Source of the DNA: Shigella phage ESh4 | Sequence record: ON528718 | Length of the DNA stretch: 51,077 bases | Reading direction: 5' to 3' (one strand) | Shown: in pieces, positions 1 through 51,077 of the stretch | How positions within the stretch are numbered: position 1 is the first letter of the stretch | Layout: each line of letters opens with the position of its first letter | The notes under the pieces: generated by a model | What the model was told of the DNA's origin: nothing | Seen by the model: only the letters and a program-made list of their open reading frames with translations | Databases searched by the model: none | Made by a program: the position numbers and the translations under genes

Positions 1-56
1 GGAAGGTATGCAAAACGAATGGGTTAGGGATGTTTTACGGATCGGAGAAATGAGCG

Positions 57-251
57 ATGAAGAATTGTTTACGTCAAATGCTAATAGACAAAATATTGAA
101 GTTCTGCGCCGTAAGTTCAATCTCACATGACGAATTCATGCACGCAATGTTAACGCTCATTCATTCTGACATGCGAGCGTTTAACATATCAGAGCATAAT
201 TTGTGTGATGAAGACGGAGTTTTATTGGTTACTGTAAAGCGTATTGAATAA
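57..251 (+). CDS. hypothetical protein (64 aa)
   Basis: Complete ORF with GGAGAAA RBS-like sequence upstream; followed by hairpin terminator at 255-280. Confidence 0.4.
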   Translation: MKNCLRQMLIDKILKFCAVSSISHDEFMHAMLTLIHSDMRAFNISEHNLCDEDGVLLVTVKRIE

Positions 252-4191: not shown

Positions 4192-4237
4192 ATTATGGCG
4201 CAATCCTTCGCGCCTGTTTTAACAAAAAGTGCTATTT
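4192..4237 (-). promoter_or_regulatory. conserved promoter-like unit
   Basis: Sense: AAATAGCACTTTTTGTTAAAAC-AGGCGCGAAGGATTGCGC-CATAAT, hairpin GGCGC/GCGCC in spacer; 35 nt upstream of Dam start. Confidence 0.55.
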
Positions 4238-4651
4238 CATCATGTATTCTACCGCGATCATGAATTGCTTATATCCGTATGTTACGGCAGCGAATCCGCC
4301 AAGCTCACGCACACGACGCAAGAAGGCTTTTTGCTCCTTGCTTACTTGTGATGCCTTACCCTTGCCGGACTTATTGACGCGCTTCATCTCTATTGCCGCG
4401 AAAGGGTAACGGCCTTTTAATCCAATCAGGATGATAAAATCACTTACGCCCTTAACAAGCCCAGCTTGCTGATCCATCATTGCGGTGGCGATCCCCTTTT
4501 CCCCCTCATTTTTAGTATGCCATGCCAGCAATTCAGGATGAGCATAAGTTACCCATTGAAACGCGCCTATCTGATGCGATTCTTCTTTTAGTGTATCTGT
4601 CGGATCTCTTTCGTAAAACTCCAGATAATCGCCTTTATCAGTCATTGCCAT
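4232..4651 (-). CDS. VRR-NUC domain nuclease
   Basis: VRR-NUC-like core (SDFIILIGLKGRYPFAAIEMKRV...GKASQVSKEQKAFL); start moved to ATG at 4651 with AAGGA RBS to avoid 47-nt overlap with helicase. Confidence 0.65.
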   Translation of the reverse strand: MAMTDKGDYLEFYERDPTDTLKEESHQIGAFQWVTYAHPELLAWHTKNEGEKGIATAMMDQQAGLVKGVSDFIILIGLKGRYPFAAIEMKRVNKSGKGKASQVSKEQKAFLRRVRELGGFAAVTYGYKQFMIAVEYMMK

Positions 4652-6677
4652 AATTAAATTCCTTCTTGTACAAATTATCTTCACCCTTGCTAGTCTTGCG
4701 GTGAGTTACACGCGATGGTGGCATGATGTGATTCACATATTGCATGATTTTACGTGCATTACGATAGCTCGCCACCATGCCAGCAACACGGCGATCTGGT
4801 ATGTGCTTAAGAGCAACGCTTCGCCATTTTGCGCGGCAAATTTGGCTCTCAGATTCAGGGAAAAATATCTCTCTCGCCCTGAAAGTGTCTATGCCATCGG
4901 AAAGCTCATAATTAAATATTATCCCTTTCTGGTTTTTCGTCATGTCAACCGAGAAAGATTGCACCTGAAACCAGTCGTTTTTTGTGTAGTGCTTTCCGCT
5001 TAACTTCTCGTTAGGGTCAATCAATGACATGTCGCAATGTCTGCATACCCTGGCCGCAATATCATTTTTCGTTCCACAACCGCGCTGAATAATCTTTTTA
5101 GTGCGCGGGTCAATCTGATCATCGCATGTCCTGAATTTAAAGAACCACTCGCATCTGTTGCCGTTTTCGTCTACGTGCATACAGCGACGAGCATAATAGC
5201 TATTAAGAGTTCCGCAAATAGGGCAAGGCTTCGGATCTTTACCATTTCTGAATCGCTTCTGATGCTGCGCCTGTTCAAGTATCGGATCAAAATAAAGCTC
5301 GCCTAACTCATCCATCGTTCCTGAAAAATCCATTACGAGGTGATCATCTTTCTTGAATCCTTGCTCCTTATGCCACTTCTTAAGCAGTCGCATTCCACGC
5401 CCTAAAAGCTGAATCAGCAAAGTTAGCGATCCAATCTTACGCAGAATAACAGACGTATCCCAAAACGGCACGTTAACGCCAGTAGTTAGCGCCTGAACCT
5501 GGAAGATGTATTTTACCTTCCCTTCGTATGCTTCCCTCAACCACTCCTTGCGCTGATTGTCGCCAGTCTTACCAGTAATGATCCTGTAAGTAGTTCCAGG
5601 TGGCAACGCTGCCGCTGCCTCTTTGCAATGCCTTTCTCCTGCACATGTCACAAGTACGCCGTTGCGGTTTTTACAGATCTCGTGAACTTTCGCCATGATG
5701 CGCTTTGTCATGGTCGCTTCTTCATGAATTTTTTGTTCCATCCTGCGAAGCGTTTTAGCGTCAAAGTCTGCAACGCCATCCTCACTGGATGCCTCAAACT
5801 CTGAAAGGTCATACCCTAGATCGCCAACGTCGCCAAAATTTGTTGGCACAACAGAACCGAATTTGATCAGGTAGTTGGTGTCAATATTAGTAACCTGTTC
5901 ACGCCAGAATCCTTTCTGTTTTTTGTCTTCTACCAGGATCGGGACTACGCCGCGAAACTCCGATCCAGTCATGCCAAATATGCGCAGTTCATGGCCATAT
6001 GCTTTCCTGCATCGGCGCATCATTTCCATGATAATGACAGTGTATTGTGTGCGGCCTGTTCCCTCCATTGGCAAGCCATCCTCACCAATCAGGAACTCTT
6101 CGCATTCGTTATCGCTCGTTATGTCATAATCTGGATTTGGTACTTTTTCGCCTTTCTTCGTCGTCATTTGTAAAAATGATTCGTCTTTCTCTATTGCGTC
6201 GGCAAGGTCTTCCCAATCCACCTGGTGACACTCGTCAATCCCGATAACGTGCGGAACATAGTCGCCAAGCGCTTTAAACAGTCCATTAACTACAGTTCCC
6301 TCAGAACCAACAACTATCGGAAAGTATGCGCTTTTTGTCTTCAGTCCTGCGCAATAGATGGAGTTCGGCACGCCAAGATTTGTTATCTCTTCAGAATCCT
6401 GATCCACAATCTCAGCCTGGCGAGCAAGGACCATCATTTTTAATCCCATTTTCCGGCACTGGTGAGCAACCATTGCAAACATCAATGTTTTGCCAGCCGA
6501 TACGGACGCTTTAACAAAGAATGGATGCTCATAATTTTTCATACGTTTTGCGATCTCAGCGTATGCAACGCACTGGTAATGGTAAGGCACAATCTCGCCA
6601 ACAGTGAATCGCTCCTGAATGGATTTAATTACCGCTTCACCAAGTGCTGATATTTGCTTTTCAATGTTTGGAATCAT
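4638..6677 (-). CDS. SF2 DNA helicase with C-terminal zinc-ribbon
   Basis: Walker A (SVSAGKT), DExH box (IGIDECHQV), C-terminal Cys clusters (CPICG...C..C); start set at ATG 6677 (MIPNIEK) with AAAGG RBS, track start 6701. Confidence 0.8.
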   Translation of the reverse strand: MIPNIEKQISALGEAVIKSIQERFTVGEIVPYHYQCVAYAEIAKRMKNYEHPFFVKASVSAGKTLMFAMVAHQCRKMGLKMMVLARQAEIVDQDSEEITNLGVPNSIYCAGLKTKSAYFPIVVGSEGTVVNGLFKALGDYVPHVIGIDECHQVDWEDLADAIEKDESFLQMTTKKGEKVPNPDYDITSDNECEEFLIGEDGLPMEGTGRTQYTVIIMEMMRRCRKAYGHELRIFGMTGSEFRGVVPILVEDKKQKGFWREQVTNIDTNYLIKFGSVVPTNFGDVGDLGYDLSEFEASSEDGVADFDAKTLRRMEQKIHEEATMTKRIMAKVHEICKNRNGVLVTCAGERHCKEAAAALPPGTTYRIITGKTGDNQRKEWLREAYEGKVKYIFQVQALTTGVNVPFWDTSVILRKIGSLTLLIQLLGRGMRLLKKWHKEQGFKKDDHLVMDFSGTMDELGELYFDPILEQAQHQKRFRNGKDPKPCPICGTLNSYYARRCMHVDENGNRCEWFFKFRTCDDQIDPRTKKIIQRGCGTKNDIAARVCRHCDMSLIDPNEKLSGKHYTKNDWFQVQSFSVDMTKNQKGIIFNYELSDGIDTFRAREIFFPESESQICRAKWRSVALKHIPDRRVAGMVASYRNARKIMQYVNHIMPPSRVTHRKTSKGEDNLYKKEFNYGND

Positions 6678-6687
6678 TCTAAAACCT

Positions 6688-6715
6688 TTGAGTAATGCCA
6701 TTTAGCGTGTATAAT
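6688..6715 (+). promoter_or_regulatory. sigma70-like promoter for rightward block
   Basis: TTGAGT-16bp-TATAAT upstream of ORF 6767. Confidence 0.4.
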
Positions 6716-6755
6716 ACACAATCATTAAATCATCGTTTAACAAAAAATGCTATTG
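6711..6755 (-). promoter_or_regulatory. conserved promoter-like unit (helicase)
   Basis: Sense: AATAGCATTTTTTGTTAAAC + 21 bp + TATTAT; divergent with 6688-6715. Confidence 0.5.
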
Positions 6756-6766
6756 GAGAATGAATA

Positions 6767-7240
6767 ATGAAAGAAAAGCGGATCGCGGTATCAACTGGCA
6801 AGATTGACAAACGCACAATCAATGGCAATAACGGAACTCGACGTGGTAAAGATAAGAAAAAGCGAAAGCGCCCTACAGGATACTATGTTTTAAAAGATGA
6901 AGTGCGCGCCGGGCTAAAAGCGCGACTTGATATCCTTATTGAGTATTACGGAAGTGTGTCAGCAATGGCAAAACGTCTTAACGTTAGCCAGCAAACTGTA
7001 AATCAGTGGCGTGTTCGCGGTATGATTTCAGCCGCTGGCGCTCAAAAGGTGCATAACGATTACAAAAAATATGGCTGCCAAGGCTATCGCGCGTCATTCT
7101 GCCGTCCAGATCTGCGATTTGATTCCAATGGTAAACCGCTCACAAAGAGATGTGATAAGCGTGAAATGTTGCGAGTGGTAAGAATGTCAGATTATGAACC
7201 TAGCGGATTCCTGTATAAACCTGAAAGCACTAATTGCTAA
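6767..7240 (+). CDS. HTH DNA-binding protein (Cro/YdaS-like motif)
   Basis: MAKRLNVSQQTVNQWRVRGMIS helix-turn-helix signature; basic N-terminus; GGAGAA RBS. Confidence 0.55.
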   Translation: MKEKRIAVSTGKIDKRTINGNNGTRRGKDKKKRKRPTGYYVLKDEVRAGLKARLDILIEYYGSVSAMAKRLNVSQQTVNQWRVRGMISAAGAQKVHNDYKKYGCQGYRASFCRPDLRFDSNGKPLTKRCDKREMLRVVRMSDYEPSGFLYKPESTNC

Positions 7241-7295
7241 AAACAATGCCTGGCATGATGTTATCATCTGTCAGGCTTTTTTGCTTGAGGTGTAT

Positions 7296-8228
7296 ATGAA
7301 TAACGAAAACTTTATGGTTTATCAAAAGGAAGATGTTCTCCCATATATGCAAGGATTGTGGCGTGAGGCGCTACAAAGTATTTGCGGTCTTCCAAATGAA
7401 GTTTTTAACGGCAAGCATCAATCTTGCCCCCACTGCGGCGGAAAGGATCGCTTCAGATGGACGGATAAACTTGGCGATAAAAAAGGCGATGGCGGTGCGA
7501 TCTGCAACGTGTGCGGTAATGATACCGGAATTGGTTGGATCATGAAGCTAACAGGAGAACCTTACAGCGAAGTGATCAATATTTTGGGCCGTTTTCTTGG
7601 AAAAGTTCCTCAGGACTATAGAATCAAGGCAAATAAGCGAGTATCTCGTGATTCTGGTTATTCGTTTGGGAAACAGGCAAGCCATGAATGCTGCGAGCGC
7701 GTTATGTCAAAAACGCTAAAATTTGATCGCACGCCGTTAAGCACCTATGAAGGGATATATCCTCCTGAAGATGGTCATTATGAATGCGGCGTTAAAGATG
7801 GTCGATACATTCACGCGTTACCATGTTACCTGGTGCATTCCGATGATATTGATGATGAAATGTGCAATGTGCTTTTCATTGATGAAGAAGGTAAACAGTC
7901 TTTTCTCGCAAAGGACTACACGCGCGGGTCTGTTGTGAGAACAGGAAGCACCGATAAGACGATCTATCTTTGCGTTGACTGGATTGATGCGCAACACATT
8001 CACCTTGCAACTGGTCAGGAGGTTTGGGCCTGTTTTGATGCAACTAACATTGAGATTGTGGCTTACAGGTATAAAGGCAACAGAAGAATGCGAGTTGTCT
8101 GTAAGAGCACAGATCGTGACGCGATCATTGCTGCTGAGGAAAGAGGACTTGAAATTATGATGCCGATTAATGATAATTACAGGCAAGGGATAGAGAGGAA
8201 TGTTTACAAACCTGAATCTCTTCTCTAA
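7296..8228 (+). CDS. DNA primase (zinc-ribbon, P4-type primase family)
   Basis: CPHCGGKDRFRWTD...CNVCG zinc-ribbon typical of phage primases; start at ATG 7296 with GAGGTG RBS (track start 7194 overlaps previous gene). Confidence 0.7.
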   Translation: MNNENFMVYQKEDVLPYMQGLWREALQSICGLPNEVFNGKHQSCPHCGGKDRFRWTDKLGDKKGDGGAICNVCGNDTGIGWIMKLTGEPYSEVINILGRFLGKVPQDYRIKANKRVSRDSGYSFGKQASHECCERVMSKTLKFDRTPLSTYEGIYPPEDGHYECGVKDGRYIHALPCYLVHSDDIDDEMCNVLFIDEEGKQSFLAKDYTRGSVVRTGSTDKTIYLCVDWIDAQHIHLATGQEVWACFDATNIEIVAYRYKGNRRMRVVCKSTDRDAIIAAEERGLEIMMPINDNYRQGIERNVYKPESLL

Positions 8229-45038: not shown

Positions 45039-45069
45039 GCTTTATACCCTCTCGTGATTCAGTGGCTGC

Positions 45070-45098
45070 ATTATTATTTACCATTCCTGGCGTGTCAA
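45070..45098 (-). promoter_or_regulatory. sigma70-like early promoter (TTGACA-17-AATAAT)
   Basis: Perfect -35 TTGACA on minus strand, 17-bp spacer, AATAAT; 30 nt upstream of ORF 44568-45038. Confidence 0.5.
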
Positions 45099-45229
45099 AT
45101 GTTTTTTATTGTTATTGGCAGTTTTTCAATGTTGTCTTTTCATAGCACAACAAGATTCTCGTTTTTCTCCTTATAAATCAATGTTATTTTGGCGTGTTAT
45201 CTAAAAATGCGCGGATTCGCCCCTACCCC

Positions 45230-45370
45230 ATATATACATACCTGCCAACACACAACCACATACAATCACCAAAAATACATCAGACATCAATATGACCACA
45301 TAACATACATAACAGATAGTAATTTATAGATACATATAAATAAATAATCCTTATTTTTTAGTATGTTATA
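45230..45370. repeat. low-complexity CA-rich / TA-rich tract
   Basis: ccaacacacaaccacatacaatcacc...cataacatacataacagatag...; shares the 13-mer acacaaccacata with region 15430-15620. Confidence 0.6.
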
Positions 45371-45422
45371 TGGATTTCTCTTGTTATTTTTTGTTATGCG
45401 ATTCCACGCCGGAATAACACGC

Positions 45423-45460
45423 ATAACAGCGATAACAGAAGATAACAGATGTGCGCGCCA
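45423..45460. repeat. ATAACAG direct repeats (3-4 copies)
   Basis: cATAACAGcgATAACAGaagATAACAGatg; iteron-like. Confidence 0.5.
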
Positions 45461-45579
45461 GGATTGCCGAAAAGGACGCAAGAGGACCGCGTTTATCTAT
45501 CCCCTCCACACAAAAAGTTAATCAACTGATTAAAATTGATCAAACTCAAAGTCTCACAATCCAGGTGATCGCGAATGAG

Positions 45580-45619
45580 TTATTCCTGTTATTCCTGATT
45601 AATGGAATAGATGGAATAA
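45580..45619. promoter_or_regulatory. operator-like array of four TTATTCC half-sites
   Basis: TTATTCCTG TTATTCCTG attaat GGAATAGAT GGAATAAT: two direct repeats and two inverted copies with 9-bp period, just upstream of promoter unit 45632-45677. Confidence 0.5.
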
Positions 45620-45631
45620 TCGCCAGTTGAG

Positions 45632-45677
45632 AAATAGCACTTTTTGTTAAAACTGAATCCGCCTGATCGGGTACATT
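45632..45677 (+). promoter_or_regulatory. conserved promoter-like unit (first rightward gene)
   Basis: AAATAGCACTTTTTGTTAAAAC + 22 bp + TACATT, 40 nt upstream of ORF 45717. Confidence 0.5.
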
Positions 45678-45716
45678 ACACACATCGAAACGAGACACCC
45701 ATCAGGAGACGGTAAG

Positions 45717-45989
45717 GTGAACATCAGCAAAACCACTTTCAACTTTGCAAAGCGTCACGGTCTGGATCTGACTGTTGAAGACTTCGGCGATGTTCTGCAA
45801 CTCTGCATTTGGGAAGCGGATAACGATTGCGAGTGGCTTTGCTCTTATCGTATCAATTACGATTGCTTAACCTGGCACGGTAATATCTATCTGCCGCAAG
45901 AAGTGAAAGAGGAATTGCCAGCTACCATCAATAATGAAGTGTTTTTGCGCAAAGTCCTGAAGTTTATTGCTGATGAGATCAAGAAATGA
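45717..45989 (+). CDS. hypothetical protein (90 aa)
   Basis: ORF with AGGAGACGG RBS, GTG start. Confidence 0.5.
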   Translation: MNISKTTFNFAKRHGLDLTVEDFGDVLQLCIWEADNDCEWLCSYRINYDCLTWHGNIYLPQEVKEELPATINNEVFLRKVLKFIADEIKK

Positions 45990-46231
45990 TTAGTGAAGTG
46001 GATTTTGAACTTGCCGAGGCCCAGGTAAGGGCCAAAAAGATGGGTTTGCGTATACTGACGAAAACCGTGGAGTTTCCGTCGATGCCGTTCGCATCATTCC
46101 ATAAAGTGACGGTGTTCAGTAGCAAACGCGAGTTTAACGCGCTAATCCCTGCTGGTGATGATAAGCGCATGGCAAAATTTATTAACGAGTCCTGTGATGT
46201 TCTGATGGCAGTTAAACACGATCAACAATGA
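45986..46231 (+). CDS. hypothetical protein (81 aa)
   Basis: ORF track, ATGA overlap with upstream gene. Confidence 0.5.
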   Translation: MISEVDFELAEAQVRAKKMGLRILTKTVEFPSMPFASFHKVTVFSSKREFNALIPAGDDKRMAKFINESCDVLMAVKHDQQ

Positions 46232-46244
46232 AGGAGAAATAAAG

Positions 46245-46511
46245 ATGGCGCGAATCAATGCACCTATTCCAGTTAAGCGCAAAGCACGACTGCTTAACAA
46301 TGGATGTTACGCCCTGCGGCCTGATTTTAAAAAACGCACCTTTCCGGTTATCGTCAACGTGTCGCACGTAAGCCGTAGCGGGAATCTGGCCTTTGTTAAC
46401 GGTGAAGATCTGGCGGCGCTTGGATTCTATGGCGGTATTTACGGCGAACCGCTCGGATTCTGGCTTGTAAATCCGTCAACTGGAGAACGTGAAATCGAAT
46501 TCCTGGACTAA
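46245..46511 (+). CDS. hypothetical protein (88 aa)
   Basis: ORF with GGAGAAATAAAG RBS; stop TAA abuts conserved element. Confidence 0.5.
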   Translation: MARINAPIPVKRKARLLNNGCYALRPDFKKRTFPVIVNVSHVSRSGNLAFVNGEDLAALGFYGGIYGEPLGFWLVNPSTGEREIEFLD

Positions 46512-46555
46512 ATAGCATTTTTTGTTAAAACCGATGCGCCTATGATTGGTATATT
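46510..46555 (+). promoter_or_regulatory. conserved promoter-like unit
   Basis: AAATAGCATTTTTTGTTAAAAC + 22 bp + TATATT; -10 lies in loop of CGATGCGC...GCGCATCG dyad. Confidence 0.55.
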
Positions 46556-46586
46556 ATGCGCATCGACAACGAACGAGGATTTAAAA

Positions 46587-46751
46587 ATGGAAACACAGGT
46601 TGATGTTAAAGTTATTAAGCGCGACAAATCTCACGAGAAAGGAATCTTTAAGAAAGGCACTATCATCACCATTGATCTTGAGGATATGGAGGCTTACCAC
46701 TCAGGTCTAACTTGGAACGTGCGCAAATGTGAAAACGGCCTGTTCAAGTAA
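46587..46751 (+). CDS. hypothetical protein (54 aa, trimmed)
   Basis: ATG 46587 with GAGGA RBS; track start 46542 would lie inside the promoter unit. Confidence 0.4.
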   Translation: METQVDVKVIKRDKSHEKGIFKKGTIITIDLEDMEAYHSGLTWNVRKCENGLFK

Positions 46752-46783
46752 AATGGCTTTGAAACATACATGGAGATCATCTA

Positions 46784-46984
46784 ATGGCAAAGAAATTAAA
46801 ACTTAAATGCGTAGAAACTTATAACTCAACTTGGAAATTCACGCGAGGGAAAGAATACCCAATAATGGGAAATCTCAAAGAAGATCCTCATTTAATTTCA
46901 GATAATTGTTTAATGGAATGCAACGATGGATATATCGGTGCTGGTGTTCCAGGCCATAAATTTAAGCTGAAAAATAAGAAATGA
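46784..46984 (+). CDS. hypothetical protein (66 aa)
   Basis: ORF track; Lys-rich. Confidence 0.45.
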   Translation: MAKKLKLKCVETYNSTWKFTRGKEYPIMGNLKEDPHLISDNCLMECNDGYIGAGVPGHKFKLKNKK

Positions 46985-47080
46985 GGCTATTTATTTTCAA
47001 AAACGCTTGGATGGTGGCGGTTGCAAATGACCATTATGGTGGAGACGGCAAGCGAGCAAATCGCCATAGCTATTTCAACT

Positions 47081-47124
47081 AATAGCACGAATTGCTAAAC
47101 AATATTTCTCAAACCTGGTATAGT
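47081..47124 (+). promoter_or_regulatory. conserved promoter-like unit (variant)
   Basis: AATAGCACGAATTGCTAAAC + 21 bp + TATAGT. Confidence 0.5.
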
Positions 47125-47154
47125 TACCACGCCAAATATAATGAGGATTGCATA

Positions 47155-47382
47155 ATGAAAGCTAAAGTCACTAACATCATGCACACTGTTGATGCACATC
47201 ACCGCGTCGCCATTAAGATGGATAAATCTTGCGGAATCAACCAGTTAACCATCACGAGTGGTAAAGGTGTGTTTGTTGTTGGCTCACATCCAGGTAGTAA
47301 AATCCGCAAATATACACGCGAAGAATTGATTAAATTGCTTGAAGAAAACAGCATGTTTATTGAAAGCTGGAAAGCTGTATGA
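47155..47382 (+). CDS. hypothetical protein (75 aa, trimmed)
   Basis: ATG 47155 with GAGGA RBS downstream of unit 47081-47124. Confidence 0.45.
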   Translation: MKAKVTNIMHTVDAHHRVAIKMDKSCGINQLTITSGKGVFVVGSHPGSKIRKYTREELIKLLEENSMFIESWKAV

Positions 47383-47389
47383 TTAATCA

Positions 47390-47417
47390 ATGGGAGATTT
47401 CCGCCTCCCATTTTATC
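47390..47417 (+). terminator. possible hairpin terminator/attenuator
   Basis: ATGGGAG-N8-CTCCCAT followed by TTTATC. Confidence 0.35.
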
Positions 47418-47429
47418 AATGGGGAATAA

Positions 47430-47543
47430 ATGATTAAGGCGCTTGATATTTTATTTGGTGTTATGATTGGCCTTGTGGGTTTGCTTGTTTTTACTGCCGG
47501 GCTTGTAATTATTATTGCTGTTATTAAGGAGTTTATTAAATGA
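47430..47543 (+). CDS. small membrane protein (37 aa, below track cutoff)
   Basis: ATG 47430 with GGGGAATAA RBS; single TMD (ILFGVMIGLVGLLVFTAGLVIIIAVI); stop overlaps next start. Confidence 0.35.
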   Translation: MIKALDILFGVMIGLVGLLVFTAGLVIIIAVIKEFIK

Positions 47544-47764
47544 GTCAAGACGGTTTTTTTGAGCGACTGCAAAAAGCGGAAGATGCCGGACTGAATAAAG
47601 AGGCTGCGCTTGAAGTGGCATATAAGATCAGGACGCTTGATGATGCGCTTGGTGAAATGGATATGGATCATGAATGTGGCGCTGCGTTTGCAGATCCAAC
47701 GATGATTGTTAATGATTGTGGATGCAATTTTGATCCTAACTGTGCGCGATGCTTTCCGTTTTGA
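47540..47764 (+). CDS. hypothetical protein (74 aa, Cys-rich C-terminus)
   Basis: ORF with AAGGAG RBS; HECG...CGC...CARC motifs. Confidence 0.45.
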   Translation: MSQDGFFERLQKAEDAGLNKEAALEVAYKIRTLDDALGEMDMDHECGAAFADPTMIVNDCGCNFDPNCARCFPF

Positions 47765-47773
47765 GGTGATGAA

Positions 47774-48484
47774 ATGTATAAAGGTTTAATTTTCTCTTTG
47801 TTTGATGGATCTGGTAAAGCCGTTAAAGATTGGGCCGACGCTGGATATAAGTGCATTTGCTTTAATGCTGACGGTGGCGATCATGGTGATTACCAGTCAG
47901 TGCGCATACAGCATGAGAATATCGAATACGTTAACTTCTGGATTGATGAAAGATTTTACCACCGCGCGCGCTGGGAGGAATGGGGTATTCCTGACTTTAT
48001 TATGGCATTTCCTCCTTGCACACAATTAGCAAATAGCGGATCTCGTCATTGGGCTAAAAAGCGCGTGGAAAATCCTAACTTCCAGGATGAGGCCGCAGAC
48101 ACTTGCAAAATTGCGGCGCATATCGCTGATTATTTCGGTGTTCCGTACATGATAGAGAATCCTGTAGGAAAGTTATCAACGTTATGGCGGAAGCCTGATT
48201 ATACTTTCCATCCGTGCGATTATGCTGGCTATCTGCCGGAAGATGATAAGCATCCCGACTTCCCTGATATTATTCCGGCGCGGGATCGCTACTTTAAGAA
48301 AACATGCCTTTGGACTGGAAACGGATTTGTTATTCCTCCGCGCGCAACAATCCTTCCTAAAGAGGGCGACAAGGATAATCCTGGCTGGGCCAAAACTGGC
48401 GGAAAATCATCTCGCACAAAGATGATTCGCTCCCTCACACCGCGCGGTTTTGCTCGCGCCGTCTTTGAAGTAAACGCAAAATAG
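47774..48484 (+). CDS. DNA cytosine-5 methyltransferase-like protein (compact)
   Basis: Motif I-like LFDGSG, motif IV-like FPPCTQLANSG (Pro-Cys), motif VI-like MIENPVG; 236 aa; stop TAG inside conserved element. Confidence 0.5.
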   Translation: MYKGLIFSLFDGSGKAVKDWADAGYKCICFNADGGDHGDYQSVRIQHENIEYVNFWIDERFYHRARWEEWGIPDFIMAFPPCTQLANSGSRHWAKKRVENPNFQDEAADTCKIAAHIADYFGVPYMIENPVGKLSTLWRKPDYTFHPCDYAGYLPEDDKHPDFPDIIPARDRYFKKTCLWTGNGFVIPPRATILPKEGDKDNPGWAKTGGKSSRTKMIRSLTPRGFARAVFEVNAK

Positions 48485-48524
48485 CACTTTTTGTTAAAAG
48501 CCAGGTGTAAAAGCCTGGCATAAT
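48478..48524 (+). promoter_or_regulatory. conserved promoter-like unit with CCAGG/CCTGG hairpin
   Basis: AAATAGCACTTTTTGTTAAAAG-CCAGGTGTAAAAGCCTGG-CATAAT; 31 nt upstream of ORF 48556. Confidence 0.55.
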
Positions 48525-48555
48525 CACTTCACCGAAACGAAAGGAGGAATAAACG

Positions 48556-48942
48556 ATGAAAGTTATCTGCAATAAAACCAACGTTTTGATGAACGGTCGT
48601 TATAAAGCTGTATACGAAAAAATTGCTGGTAGCGATGATGTGATCGAGTTGGAACAATTCCAGGTAAAGAGCATTACAAAGGGTAGCAAGTGGCAAAACG
48701 CTGTTGAGTCTGACTATCGTCATATCAAGACAAAAACAATTAAATGCACCTTTGTAGATCACAAGATCCCGTGTAAAAAGCATTTCAAAGAAGGAAAGCG
48801 TTACCAGATTGAGCAAGGTCGCGCTCTTGGTGCTGTTGCTGGTTATGTTTTTGATGAAGCTGGCGACCGCTGGACGCTATACCGCGAAGAAGTAGGATTT
48901 TCCGCTGGTGGCTGTCATTTGTTTGAGGCTATGTATAAGTGA
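48556..48942 (+). CDS. hypothetical protein (128 aa)
   Basis: ORF with AAAGGAGGAATAAACG RBS. Confidence 0.5.
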   Translation: MKVICNKTNVLMNGRYKAVYEKIAGSDDVIELEQFQVKSITKGSKWQNAVESDYRHIKTKTIKCTFVDHKIPCKKHFKEGKRYQIEQGRALGAVAGYVFDEAGDRWTLYREEVGFSAGGCHLFEAMYK

Positions 48943-49160
48943 TCAAGACTGAATATCGCTATAAGGTGACTTATTCAGCAACAAAAACCTTCAAGCCTGG
49001 CGATATAGTCAGGCCAATAAAGAAAACGACGGTTGGATGGCTGATTGGTCTTTCTTACCACAAATCACTTTATTTTGATTTTGCTGATTCCGTAACCGCG
49101 CATTGCCATAGCGCAAGGGAACCAGAAAAAATCTTGGTTAGCATAGAGCGGATCAAATAG
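48939..49160 (+). CDS. hypothetical protein (73 aa)
   Basis: ORF track; stop TAG inside conserved element. Confidence 0.45.
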   Translation: MIKTEYRYKVTYSATKTFKPGDIVRPIKKTTVGWLIGLSYHKSLYFDFADSVTAHCHSAREPEKILVSIERIK

Positions 49161-49200
49161 CATTTTTTGTTAAATGCGGGTAGCATTGTTGCGGTATTAT
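49155..49200 (+). promoter_or_regulatory. conserved promoter-like unit
   Basis: AAATAGCATTTTTTGTTAAATG + 22 bp + TATTAT. Confidence 0.55.
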
Positions 49201-49228
49201 TGCCGCATCAAAAAAGGAGTTATCATCA

Positions 49229-50812
49229 ATGAATTTTTCGTTTGAAACCAATAAACTAACACCAAAACAAATTATCGAATTAGCTGATGCACAAGGATTG
49301 TCTCCGGTGCGCGTGTCCATTCAGGCAAACGGATACCGTCAATCGTCCAGCTTTTGGGGTGAGGTTAATGATGTTAATAACGGAAACGATCGCTACCCTG
49401 TAATTTCTCTTGGCAATGATGTTGATATTGTTGGAAAGTTAGCGCGCAACATTGCTCGCTCTGTTCAATTCCCTGAATCATCGGCCTATATGCATTTTAT
49501 CGGCTGCGTGTCTGCTGCAATGCTTGGGCGATTCACGGTTGAGTATCACGGAACGGATCAGCCAACCGCTCTTTATGTTGTCACAAGTCAGCCTCCTTCA
49601 ACTGGTAAATCTGCCGTTAACAGCCTGGCTCTTGCTCCAATGGTTGCAGAAGTGGAAAGAATTAACGATCAGCGAAAGAAGGAAAGAAAAAAGATTCAGG
49701 CAAAGTTGGCAGGTCTTGCAAAAGAGATGAAAAGCGAGCGCTCCGGCGCTGATATGGAATCTCTGTACCAGGAGAAAGAAGATCTGGAAGAAAAACTGGA
49801 AAAGATGTGTGACATCGTTTTCCCTGTGTCCGACACCACGCCGGAAGGACTTGCAAGAATCAACAATCGCCAGGGTAACTTTGCTGTGATTTCAGACGAG
49901 GCAACAAGTATTAACAGCCTTTTAGGTCTGACATATGCCAATAGCGAACGTAAAACCAACAGCGAACTTGTTCTGAAAGCATGGGATCATGGTCATGTTT
50001 CTATAGCTCGTGCAAACGCTGACAACAATATGAGTTTTAAAGCTCTTGGCTGCATGGCGGTAATTGCCCAGGATGAAACAATCAATGCCATCATGGATGC
50101 AGGATCGCGAGGTATTGGTGTAAGTGAGCGTTATTTGCTTGTGCGTGAAGAATCATTTTTAGGTCGTCGAAAGTTTGTTGATGATAACGGTGATTCGACT
50201 TATGAGCCTGTTGATGGAGAACTGAAAAGCCAATATTTTAAGCTGATCCATAACATCATGAGTGAATCAAACATCCAGCTTAAGATCAGTAAATCAGCAA
50301 TGCGAGTTCTTAACATGGCTCGTCAGGAGATGGAGCCGCACCTTGCTGATGGAGGAAAGTATTCGCATACAATGCTGCGCGGTGCGCTTGGCAAAATGGA
50401 TAAGCAGGTGATCAGGATTGCTTCGGTTTTGCACACTATCCGCAATTGGTTTAATCCTGGTGGATACCCTCAGAAGTCGAAAGAGATTGAAGTTGAAACC
50501 GTTCAGGAAGCACTGTTGATGTTTAGCGAGTTGAGCAAAACATACATTAGCGCCGCCAACGCTTCTGGCTATGCTGGTGATGATGCTGAGATGGGTAAAC
50601 TAATCGAGATTATCACTCGACACGGTAAGGCTAACAAGGGGATCTTGAATGTGCGCGCCATATATGAGGCTGCACGAAAAGTTAAGCCGTTTGTTGGTCA
50701 GGCTGGCGTAATGAAGCGTATGGAAACGCAACTGCTGCCGATGCTTGAAGAAAGAAATTATATTTGTGTGATTAATGGCGTTGTTTTTGTAAATCCAACA
50801 TTGCTGGGGTAA
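49229..50812 (+). CDS. P-loop NTPase (DUF3987-like; possible replication/helicase-associated ATPase)
   Basis: Walker A-like VVTSQPPSTGKSAV and Walker B-like NFAVISDEAT; 527 aa; AAAAAAGGAG RBS. Confidence 0.5.
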   Translation: MNFSFETNKLTPKQIIELADAQGLSPVRVSIQANGYRQSSSFWGEVNDVNNGNDRYPVISLGNDVDIVGKLARNIARSVQFPESSAYMHFIGCVSAAMLGRFTVEYHGTDQPTALYVVTSQPPSTGKSAVNSLALAPMVAEVERINDQRKKERKKIQAKLAGLAKEMKSERSGADMESLYQEKEDLEEKLEKMCDIVFPVSDTTPEGLARINNRQGNFAVISDEATSINSLLGLTYANSERKTNSELVLKAWDHGHVSIARANADNNMSFKALGCMAVIAQDETINAIMDAGSRGIGVSERYLLVREESFLGRRKFVDDNGDSTYEPVDGELKSQYFKLIHNIMSESNIQLKISKSAMRVLNMARQEMEPHLADGGKYSHTMLRGALGKMDKQVIRIASVLHTIRNWFNPGGYPQKSKEIEVETVQEALLMFSELSKTYISAANASGYAGDDAEMGKLIEIITRHGKANKGILNVRAIYEAARKVKPFVGQAGVMKRMETQLLPMLEERNYICVINGVVFVNPTLLG

Positions 50813-50814
50813 TT

Positions 50815-51077
50815 ATGTTTCTTCTGGATCTGTATCGCTGGTGTGAGTCATTCGAATGGTTTACACGTCAACATATAGCAAAATTTATCTTTCAGCATAG
50901 AGAATGTGAGCGGCTCGCAAGGGCCGCAGGATTTACGCCGAGAATGTTTGCGACTGCCGTTTCAAAAGAGTTTTGCGCAAGAATGATGACCGCTGGTTAT
51001 CTTGATGGAGTTGGCGGAAAGTTCTGGTGTAAGAAAGGATCCGCAAATAGACCTTTCTCGTTTGAACTTTACAGCCT
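50815..51077 (+). CDS. hypothetical protein, 3'-truncated by window end
   Basis: ATG 50815 just after previous stop; open to end of window (MFLLDLYRWCESFEWF...). Confidence 0.35.
   Translation, partial: MFLLDLYRWCESFEWFTRQHIAKFIFQHRECERLARAAGFTPRMFATAVSKEFCARMMTAGYLDGVGGKFWCKKGSANRPFSFELYS

Follow-up and report, generated by a model that had tools for sequence, protein, structure and literature searches.

A DUF3987-family, MCM-like AAA+ ATPase of Shigella phage ESh4 and its probable role as the helicase of the phage replication fork

The locus and its conservation among T1-like phages

The window analyzed here is the whole 51,077-nucleotide stretch of Shigella phage ESh4 (sequence record ON528718). 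On its plus strand, on which all the features of the protein described below also lie, a single open reading frame (ORF) occupies positions 49229..50812 (ATG at 49229, stop codon at 50810-50812, 527 codons), whose product we describe, from the ORF listing, Pfam, PHROG and the predicted structure, as a putative helicase of the DUF3987 family with an MCM-like AAA+ (superfamily 6, SF6) core. As a first-pass annotation made from the letters alone had noted, no gene of the rightward block (45717-51077) is larger; the next longest ORF there encodes 236 amino acids.

The ATG lies 9 nt downstream of a ribosome-binding site read from the sequence (AAGGAG, 49214..49219), and further upstream on the same strand stands a promoter-like unit (49153..49200) made up of a conserved box, AAATAGCATTTTTTGTTAAA (49156-49174), and a -10-like TATTAT (49195-49200). 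It is one of five copies in the rightward block of a unit of 19-25 nt with the pattern AAATAGCAyTTTTTGTTAAA (at 45633, 46511, 47081, 48480 and 49156), each of which is followed, approximately 20 nt to its 3' side, by a -10-like element of the GGTATAnT type and then by a ribosome-binding site and a start codon. The earlier description of the gene as preceded by its own promoter unit holds insofar as the repeated unit is a genuine sequence element; its function as a promoter is putative, because the unit was neither called nor scored in a generic sigma-70 scan.

Only if the two ends of the window are joined does the stretch from the stop codon of the DUF3987 gene to the spanin gene have the same length as in phage JakobBernoulli; the window is thus a circularly permuted form of a complete 51-kb genome. 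Across this permutation point runs a tightly coupled downstream ORF of 130 amino acids (phrog_2794, by PHROG match), the start of which occupies 50815..51077 on the plus strand and which continues at window positions 1-130. It is kept directly downstream of the orthologous genes of T1 (ST10, 50% identity) and SECphi27 (75% identity, with a 4-nt overlap).

The DNA of the DUF3987 gene is 97.9% identical to that of phage egaa and other Hanrivervirus genomes (Drexlerviridae, Tempevirinae), and the protein is 100% identical to one of Shigella phage pSf-1. Homologues occur in 920 phage records, nearly all of them from T1-like siphoviruses of enterobacteria, and the T1 orthologue, ST9 (522 aa, 57.5% identity), has the same syntenic position; nearly every coliphage of the T1 type has the gene. 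In GenBank the gene goes by "hypothetical protein", "putative helicase" or "DNA helicase". Throughout the Drexlerviridae subfamilies, the gene belongs to the strictly conserved syntenic core and is not one of the variable accessory genes. Phages of this family are also involved in the Druantia/Zorya, Avs7 and RAZR systems, and a link of the gene to these was considered and set aside, the triggers there being baseplate, major capsid, and recombinase/portal proteins.

Elsewhere in the genome, a stand-alone primase with a zinc ribbon of the T7 gp4/P4-alpha type and no helicase domain (7194..8228, plus strand; Pfam Zn_Ribbon_Prim, E 2e-12) is the presumed partner of the DUF3987 protein. It matches PHROG 510 ("DNA primase") over profile positions 5-316 of 667 only, that is, over the primase half, and is not adjacent to the DUF3987 gene, being approximately 7.5 kb off across the permutation point with the lysis cassette in between. 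The other helicase of the phage is an SF2 enzyme (4638-6701) followed by a VRR-NUC nuclease, a pairing of the repair type, and no separate initiator or loader is recognizable among the Pfam and PHROG matches of the genome. An iteron-like ATAACA cluster lies at 45.0-45.7 kb (45040-45720), at the head of the transcription block of the DUF3987 gene. The GC skew switches at 45-46 kb, which by itself is uninformative about an origin, because the direction of transcription switches at the same place.

Domains and motifs of the protein

Conservation was counted over 106 homologues whose identity to the query ranges from 23 to 72%, and secondary structure was taken from the AF2 model. Six residues (K127, E224, R261, G297, R301 and K389) are invariant in all 106. 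The first-pass annotation had called the protein a P-loop NTPase on the strength of a Walker A-like PPSTGKS (residues 122-128, nt 49592-49612) and a Walker B-like VISDEAT (residues 220-226, nt 49886-49906), both of which are present in the sequence; the invariance of K127 and E224 over so wide a range of identity bears this claim out, and the two motifs are not due to chance.

Residues 1-100 (49229..49528) form a predicted all-helical N-terminal domain, which on its own matched no Pfam family and which stands in place of the OB/zinc N-domain of MCM. After the first β-strand comes the Walker A motif or P-loop, Q121-PPSTGKS128 (49589..49612), which hhalign sets in register with the GDPGxAKS of MCM and in which K127 is conserved in 106/106 homologues, Q121 in 102, P122 in 101 and G126 in 96, while all 106 have S or T at position 128. 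After the Walker A helix, the protein carries a family-specific helical hairpin of coiled-coil type (approximately residues 138-195, 49640..49813; AF2 helices 127-168 and 173-192). Owing to this insertion of approximately 55 residues, the Walker A lysine and the Walker B glutamate of DUF3987 proteins stand further apart (median 98 residues) than those of 19 archaeal MCMs (58-61).

Between β2 and α2 lies a T204-P-E206 motif (49838..49846; T204 in 105/106 and E206 in 104/106), which stands at the position of AAA+ pore loop 1 and may have its role. The Walker B strand AVISDE (residues 219-224, 49883..49900; AF2 strand 217-222) ends in the invariant E224, and D223 is an aspartate in only 49 of the 106 homologues (A in 37, S in 15). 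It is followed by a predicted pre-sensor-1 β-hairpin with β4 (residues 253-280, 49985..50068; AF2 strands 253-259 and 268-280), in which R261 (nt 50009-50011, in VSIARA), present in 106/106, is paired by hhalign with the lysine of the ISIAKAG hairpin of MCM. At the end of β4, Q281 (50069..50071; Q in 105/106) is a candidate sensor-1 residue, a role suggested by the AF2 model and by the alignment of VIAQ with the AAAN of MCM.

Just before β5, the motif G297-V-S-E-R301-Y (50117..50134), in register with the SRFD of MCM in hhalign, is a candidate arginine finger. Its general pattern is G297-x-S-E-R301-Y/F, with G297 and R301 in 106/106 homologues and E300 in 99. E224 and R301 are 77 residues apart, which is close to the distance from Walker B to SRFD in MCM (mostly 68-70). 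The α-helical lid (approximately residues 330-446, 50216..50566; AF2 helices 330-344, 355-372, 381-406 and 422-446) is colinear with that of MCM in hhalign and contains R384-GALG-K389 (50378..50395; K389 in 106/106, G385 in 100, R384 in 71), of which R384 and K389 may serve as sensor-2 residues. A C-terminal winged-helix domain (approximately residues 451-527, 50579..50809) completes the protein. Helicase motifs of the SF1/SF2 type are not visible, in agreement with the first reading by eye; the protein is an AAA+ ATPase, with sensor and arginine-finger motifs in their place.

Family assignment and relation to MCM helicases

Pfam places residues 82-431 in DUF3987 (PF13148) with 149.6 bits against a gathering cut-off of 27 (E 1.7e-43, profile positions 3-350 of 364), as had been guessed beforehand, and PHROG 2373 ("DNA helicase") is matched over the full length (E 1.7e-245). 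The HMM search that the first-pass annotation had proposed thus returned this family and no assignment to a non-NTPase one. Taken with the phage comparisons, the matches identify the 527-aa protein as a DUF3987-family AAA+ ATPase conserved in Drexlerviridae.

An exhaustive HMMER scan found 2369 cluster representatives at E <= 0.001. Longer relatives carry N-terminal fusions to a DnaG-type zinc ribbon, PriCT_2 or a DnaB N-terminal domain, and BFVD neighbors include primase-polymerase and Toprim fusions. At two loci of relatives (L124 and L125), a gene for a DnaG-type zinc ribbon overlaps the start of the DUF3987 gene, and at a third (L123), the DUF3987 homologue heads a replication/recombination module with an SF2 helicase, a nuclease, AAA_24 and SSB. 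These gene contexts agree with a replication role. Fusion to a primase, or a place right beside one, is common in the family without being obligatory.

Neither the sequence nor the 106-sequence profile retrieved a relative of the family from the PDB; the matches obtained were coiled-coil artefacts arising in residues 130-210, and those from NCBIfam were likewise of coiled-coil type and below threshold. Such spurious matches arise because of the helical-hairpin insert. As for other classes of ring helicase, there was no Pfam DnaB_C match of the kind expected for a DnaB-like SF4 enzyme, the structural neighbors listed being AAA+ and winged-helix/helical domains with no DnaB among them, and an SF3 core with motifs A, B and C (as in P4 alpha, D5 and E1/LTag) was not found.

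Several features point to the MCM-like clade: the AAA+ fold is closest to that of MCM, the predicted pre-sensor-1 hairpin bears a basic residue and the arginine-finger motif is of the SRF type; the β-hairpin of the helix-2 insert is missing. In a profile comparison by hhalign with 19 clean archaeal MCMs, retrieved from genome contigs by a degenerate Walker B pattern, the E value was 0.024 at full length and 0.0065, with 5.8% probability, when the helical insert was left out (2-6% overall), values that are not significant alone. Even so, the two profiles align colinearly and keep the register at five places: Walker A, the SIA(R/K)A hairpin, S(E)RF/SRFD, the lid and the winged helix. At Walker B the register is lost because the 527-aa protein lacks a helix-2 insert: in the AF2 model, helix 205-215 runs uninterrupted into the Walker B strand 217-222. 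Pfam MCM was not matched by the full protein at E <= 1 or by the core alone at E <= 5.

Given this weak profile-profile comparison, the MCM relationship rests mainly on the predicted structure, according to which the protein is MCM-like in its fold and in the second half of its ATPase site, and is related, as a distant MCM-like member of superfamily 6, to the archaeal/eukaryotic replicative helicase. Distant homology to MCM has been reported for phage Corndog. It is not an MCM sensu stricto, lacking an OB-fold/zinc N-domain, a helix-2 insert and a sequence-profile match to Pfam MCM. Compared with archaeal MCM, Mcm2-7 and MCM8/9, to which its identity is 11-16%, the phage protein is without the first two of these elements, has the additional hairpin of approximately 55 residues after the Walker A helix, and carries Gln at position 281, where MCM has the sensor-1 Asn. 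The MCM clade also holds ATPases that are not helicases, such as Mg chelatase, RavA/MoxR and BrxL. Moreover, MCM translocates 3'-5', opposite to the 5'-3' polarity of AgaPH, a DUF3987 protein considered below, and the mechanism is therefore not simply transferable from MCM.

A probable helicase of the phage replication fork

In the literature, Kazlauskas et al. assigned DUF3987 to SF6, pointed out that it has a C-terminal wHTH and is associated with primases, and predicted that it acts as a phage replicative helicase; they also recorded that replication requires the dns protein of phage N4, in which DUF3987 is fused to AEP (PMC4889955). AgaPH, a PriCT-DUF3987 protein, is an ATP/dATP-dependent 5'-3' helicase on 5'-tailed and forked DNA, elutes as an oligomer, binds its primase-polymerase and is inactivated by K213A in Walker A and by E297Q in Walker B (PMC11724360). 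The catalytic residues required in AgaPH have their invariant counterparts in K127 and E224 of the 106 homologues of the phage protein, and helicase activity and polarity in the DUF3987 family are known from AgaPH alone.

Common to the phage protein and the DUF3987/PHROG 2373 proteins, which include T1 ST9, the helicase part of N4 dns and AgaPH, are the Walker A motif, the Walker B glutamate, the invariant arginines, the helical insert and a winged helix at the C-terminus. AgaPH, from Seonamhaeicola sp. S2-3, differs in its N-terminal PriCT, where the phage protein has a helical N-domain of approximately 100 residues, and in being encoded on an integrative element next to the gene for an AEP primase-polymerase, whereas the primase presumed for the phage protein is of Toprim type and distant. 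Two further proteins, SCCmec Cch (DUF927, PDB 5dgk) and the SaPI5 primase-helicase/Rep (PDB 7ola), are self-loading AAA+ ring helicases of mobile elements, are associated with primases and are plausible models of a combined initiator and helicase function. A division of labor like that of T7 gp4 and P4 alpha, between a zinc-ribbon/Toprim primase and a ring helicase, would also be expected here, as the phage primase shares its zinc-ribbon family with both; those proteins unite the primase with its helicase (SF4 RecA-type in gp4, SF3 in P4 alpha) in one chain, whereas here the helicase is separate and of an unrelated SF6-type AAA+ class.

Family membership, fold, motif conservation and synteny were observed here, as was the association with primases in relatives, and together they suggest that the DUF3987 protein is probably the ring helicase of the phage's own replication fork. 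In ESh4 it would assemble into a ring, most likely a hexamer, that binds ATP at the subunit interfaces, K127 and E224 being contributed by one subunit and the R301 arginine finger by its neighbor. Sequential hydrolysis would move the R261 β-hairpin along single-stranded DNA in the central channel with a given polarity, thereby unwinding the phage duplex, while the winged helix at the C-terminus and the helical domain at the N-terminus may bind DNA, the origin or partner proteins. Its partners in replication would be the separate helicase-less primase, the phage SSB, the recombination proteins and host DNA polymerase III, the last because the phage encodes no polymerase; T1 and TLS are reported to lack an apparent DNA polymerase gene (PMC11447400). 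The helicase might also load itself at the origin, given that no separate initiator or loader is recognizable in the genome.

A more detailed scheme, which we offer tentatively and regard as possible rather than likely, is that T1-type phages use a hybrid replisome, in which the MCM-like helicase loads itself through its winged helix at the ATAACA cluster, moves 5'-3', as DnaB does, although its fold is MCM-like, and couples a T7/P4-type primase to the Pol III holoenzyme, with the helical-hairpin insert and the downstream 130-aa protein as adaptors.

The earlier suggestion of a replication initiator or helicase-loader was right as to replication, and an initiator role may still be combined with that of a helicase that loads itself and carries a winged helix at its C-terminus. 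A stricter form of the initiator reading would have the winged helix recognize the origin, the protein melt the DNA and host DnaB be recruited to it, as with lambda O/P or DnaA/DnaC, the DUF3987 protein not being the fork helicase at all. The winged helix is indeed similar to those of ORC and Cdc6, the genome has no other recognizable initiator, the iteron-like cluster stands at the head of the gene's transcription block, and in the TLS paper it is speculated that initiation is the work of phage proteins and elongation that of host enzymes (PMC11447400). The AAA+ core is not of the initiator clade (DnaC/IstB, DnaA, Cdc6/ORC). We hold this reading to be unlikely. The fork-helicase role would come into doubt if T1 needed host DnaB; our literature search found nothing usable on the mapping of T1 genes 1/2 or on the requirement of T1 for dnaB, dnaG and dnaE.

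We give still less credence to a non-replicative DNA translocase, acting in recombination-dependent concatemer formation, branch migration, repair, or host-DNA degradation and takeover, for the SF2 helicase and VRR-NUC nuclease are already present for such jobs, the stand-alone primase would be left without a helicase partner, and primase fusions and adjacency prevail in the DUF3987 family (PMC4889955). The defence or anti-defence ATPase that had also been proposed, which might serve, for example, in superinfection exclusion or as a counter-defence motor, is highly improbable in view of a PADLOC search that returned only JetC (E 0.005, over coiled-coil residues 140-199, an artefact), of the strict syntenic conservation of the gene in Drexlerviridae subfamilies and of strongly conserved catalytic motifs in a family tied to primases. 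The leading idea of the first-pass annotation was, in essence, right, and its interpretation is partly supported.

The gene is already catalogued and annotated, is core to a well-sampled phage family and had its likely role predicted in 2016. The label "putative DNA helicase" is adequate for it, and a sharper one would be "DUF3987/MCM-like (SF6) replicative helicase, predicted". The T1-like phage literature, for example the TLS paper, usually calls the SF2 enzyme "the helicase" (PMC11447400). Our analysis suggests that the fork helicase of T1-like phages is the DUF3987 protein rather than the SF2 enzyme. To our knowledge, the replication machinery of T1, a classic coliphage, has never been reconstituted. 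Since AgaPH is the sole DUF3987 member that has been assayed, the proteins of the abundant and easily grown Drexlerviridae would make a convenient model of an MCM-like motor working with bacterial polymerases.

Candidate regulatory sequences of the rightward block

A divergent intergenic region of 681 bp (45040-45720) stands at the head of the rightward block; it is AT-rich, with a GC content of 37%, and holds 13 of the 63 ATAACA/TGTTAT hexamers of the whole genome, where 0.84 would be expected (Poisson P about 8e-12). Between 45414 and 45447, four of these hexamers are spaced 9-10 nt apart. The minimum of the cumulative GC skew lies in this region as well, but it coincides there with the switch in transcription direction. 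We regard the region as a candidate origin or operator cluster. The rightward early block also carries five copies of a promoter-like unit, at 45633, 46511, 47081, 48480 and 49156, in which the box AAATAGCAyTTTTTGTTAAA is followed, after about 20 nt, by GGTATAnT. Every copy lies ahead of a single gene or a group of genes in the block, and its upstream box may serve as a site for a regulator or as an UP-like element.

The putative helicase gene and its relatives

In the alignment of 106 homologues of the putative DUF3987-family helicase (49229-50812, + strand), the second beta-hairpin arginine typical of DUF3987 (R-x-x-R) is present in 98/106 at the residue-264 column. The ESh4 protein has alanine there and retains only R261 of the pair; arginine is absent from this column in the close Drexlerviridae relatives as well. 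The genome encodes a second helicase, an SF2-type protein of 686 aa (ResIII/Helicase_C) that is followed by a VRR-NUC nuclease (4232-6701, - strand), and divergent from these two genes are a Cro/YdaS-like regulator and the stand-alone primase (6767-8228, + strand). It is usually the SF2 protein that is meant by "the helicase" in papers on T1-like phages (e.g., the TLS paper, PMC11447400).

About 20 GenBank records of the MG0656xx series, entitled "Campylobacter phage A1xx" (e.g., the matched records H18, H19, and H23), contain the helicase gene with about 97% DNA identity and 99-100% protein identity to that of coliphage Hanriverviruses; they are most likely contaminating T1-like coliphages or mislabelled entries. 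In a few relatives the gene is found in 3-5 matched pieces or as several annotated CDSs. A split helicase gene or a neighbouring HNH gene was recorded for Salmonella phage 36 (H34), Shigella phage 2019SD1 (H61), Citrobacter phage HCF1 (P0118), and phage T1, whose HNH endonuclease gene ST8 lies directly upstream of the helicase orthologue ST9. Either assembly errors or the activity of homing endonucleases around the gene could lie behind the splitting, and one record bears the UNVERIFIED_ASMBLY flag.

Small ORFs near the putative helicase gene

Starting 2 nt past the helicase stop codon, a 130-aa ORF of phrog_2794 runs on the + strand across the window ends (50815-51077, then 1-130) and has no match in Pfam. 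Its counterparts likewise come immediately after the helicase gene in phage T1 (ST10, 50% identity) and in SECphi27 (75% identity, with a 4-nt overlap), and its product may assist the helicase as an accessory protein. On the other side, two genes upstream, is a 128-aa ORF of unknown function (phrog_2684; 48556-48942, + strand). SECphi27 mutants in a "128aa protein of unknown function" were reported to escape Mokosh type I (2022 preprint, 10.1101/2022.08.27.505566). Since the ESh4 ORF shares 75% identity with the SECphi27 ORF at 6629-7015 (sequence L126), and the first 50 kb of that phage contain no other ORF of 128 aa, the ESh4 ORF may be a homologue of the Mokosh trigger.
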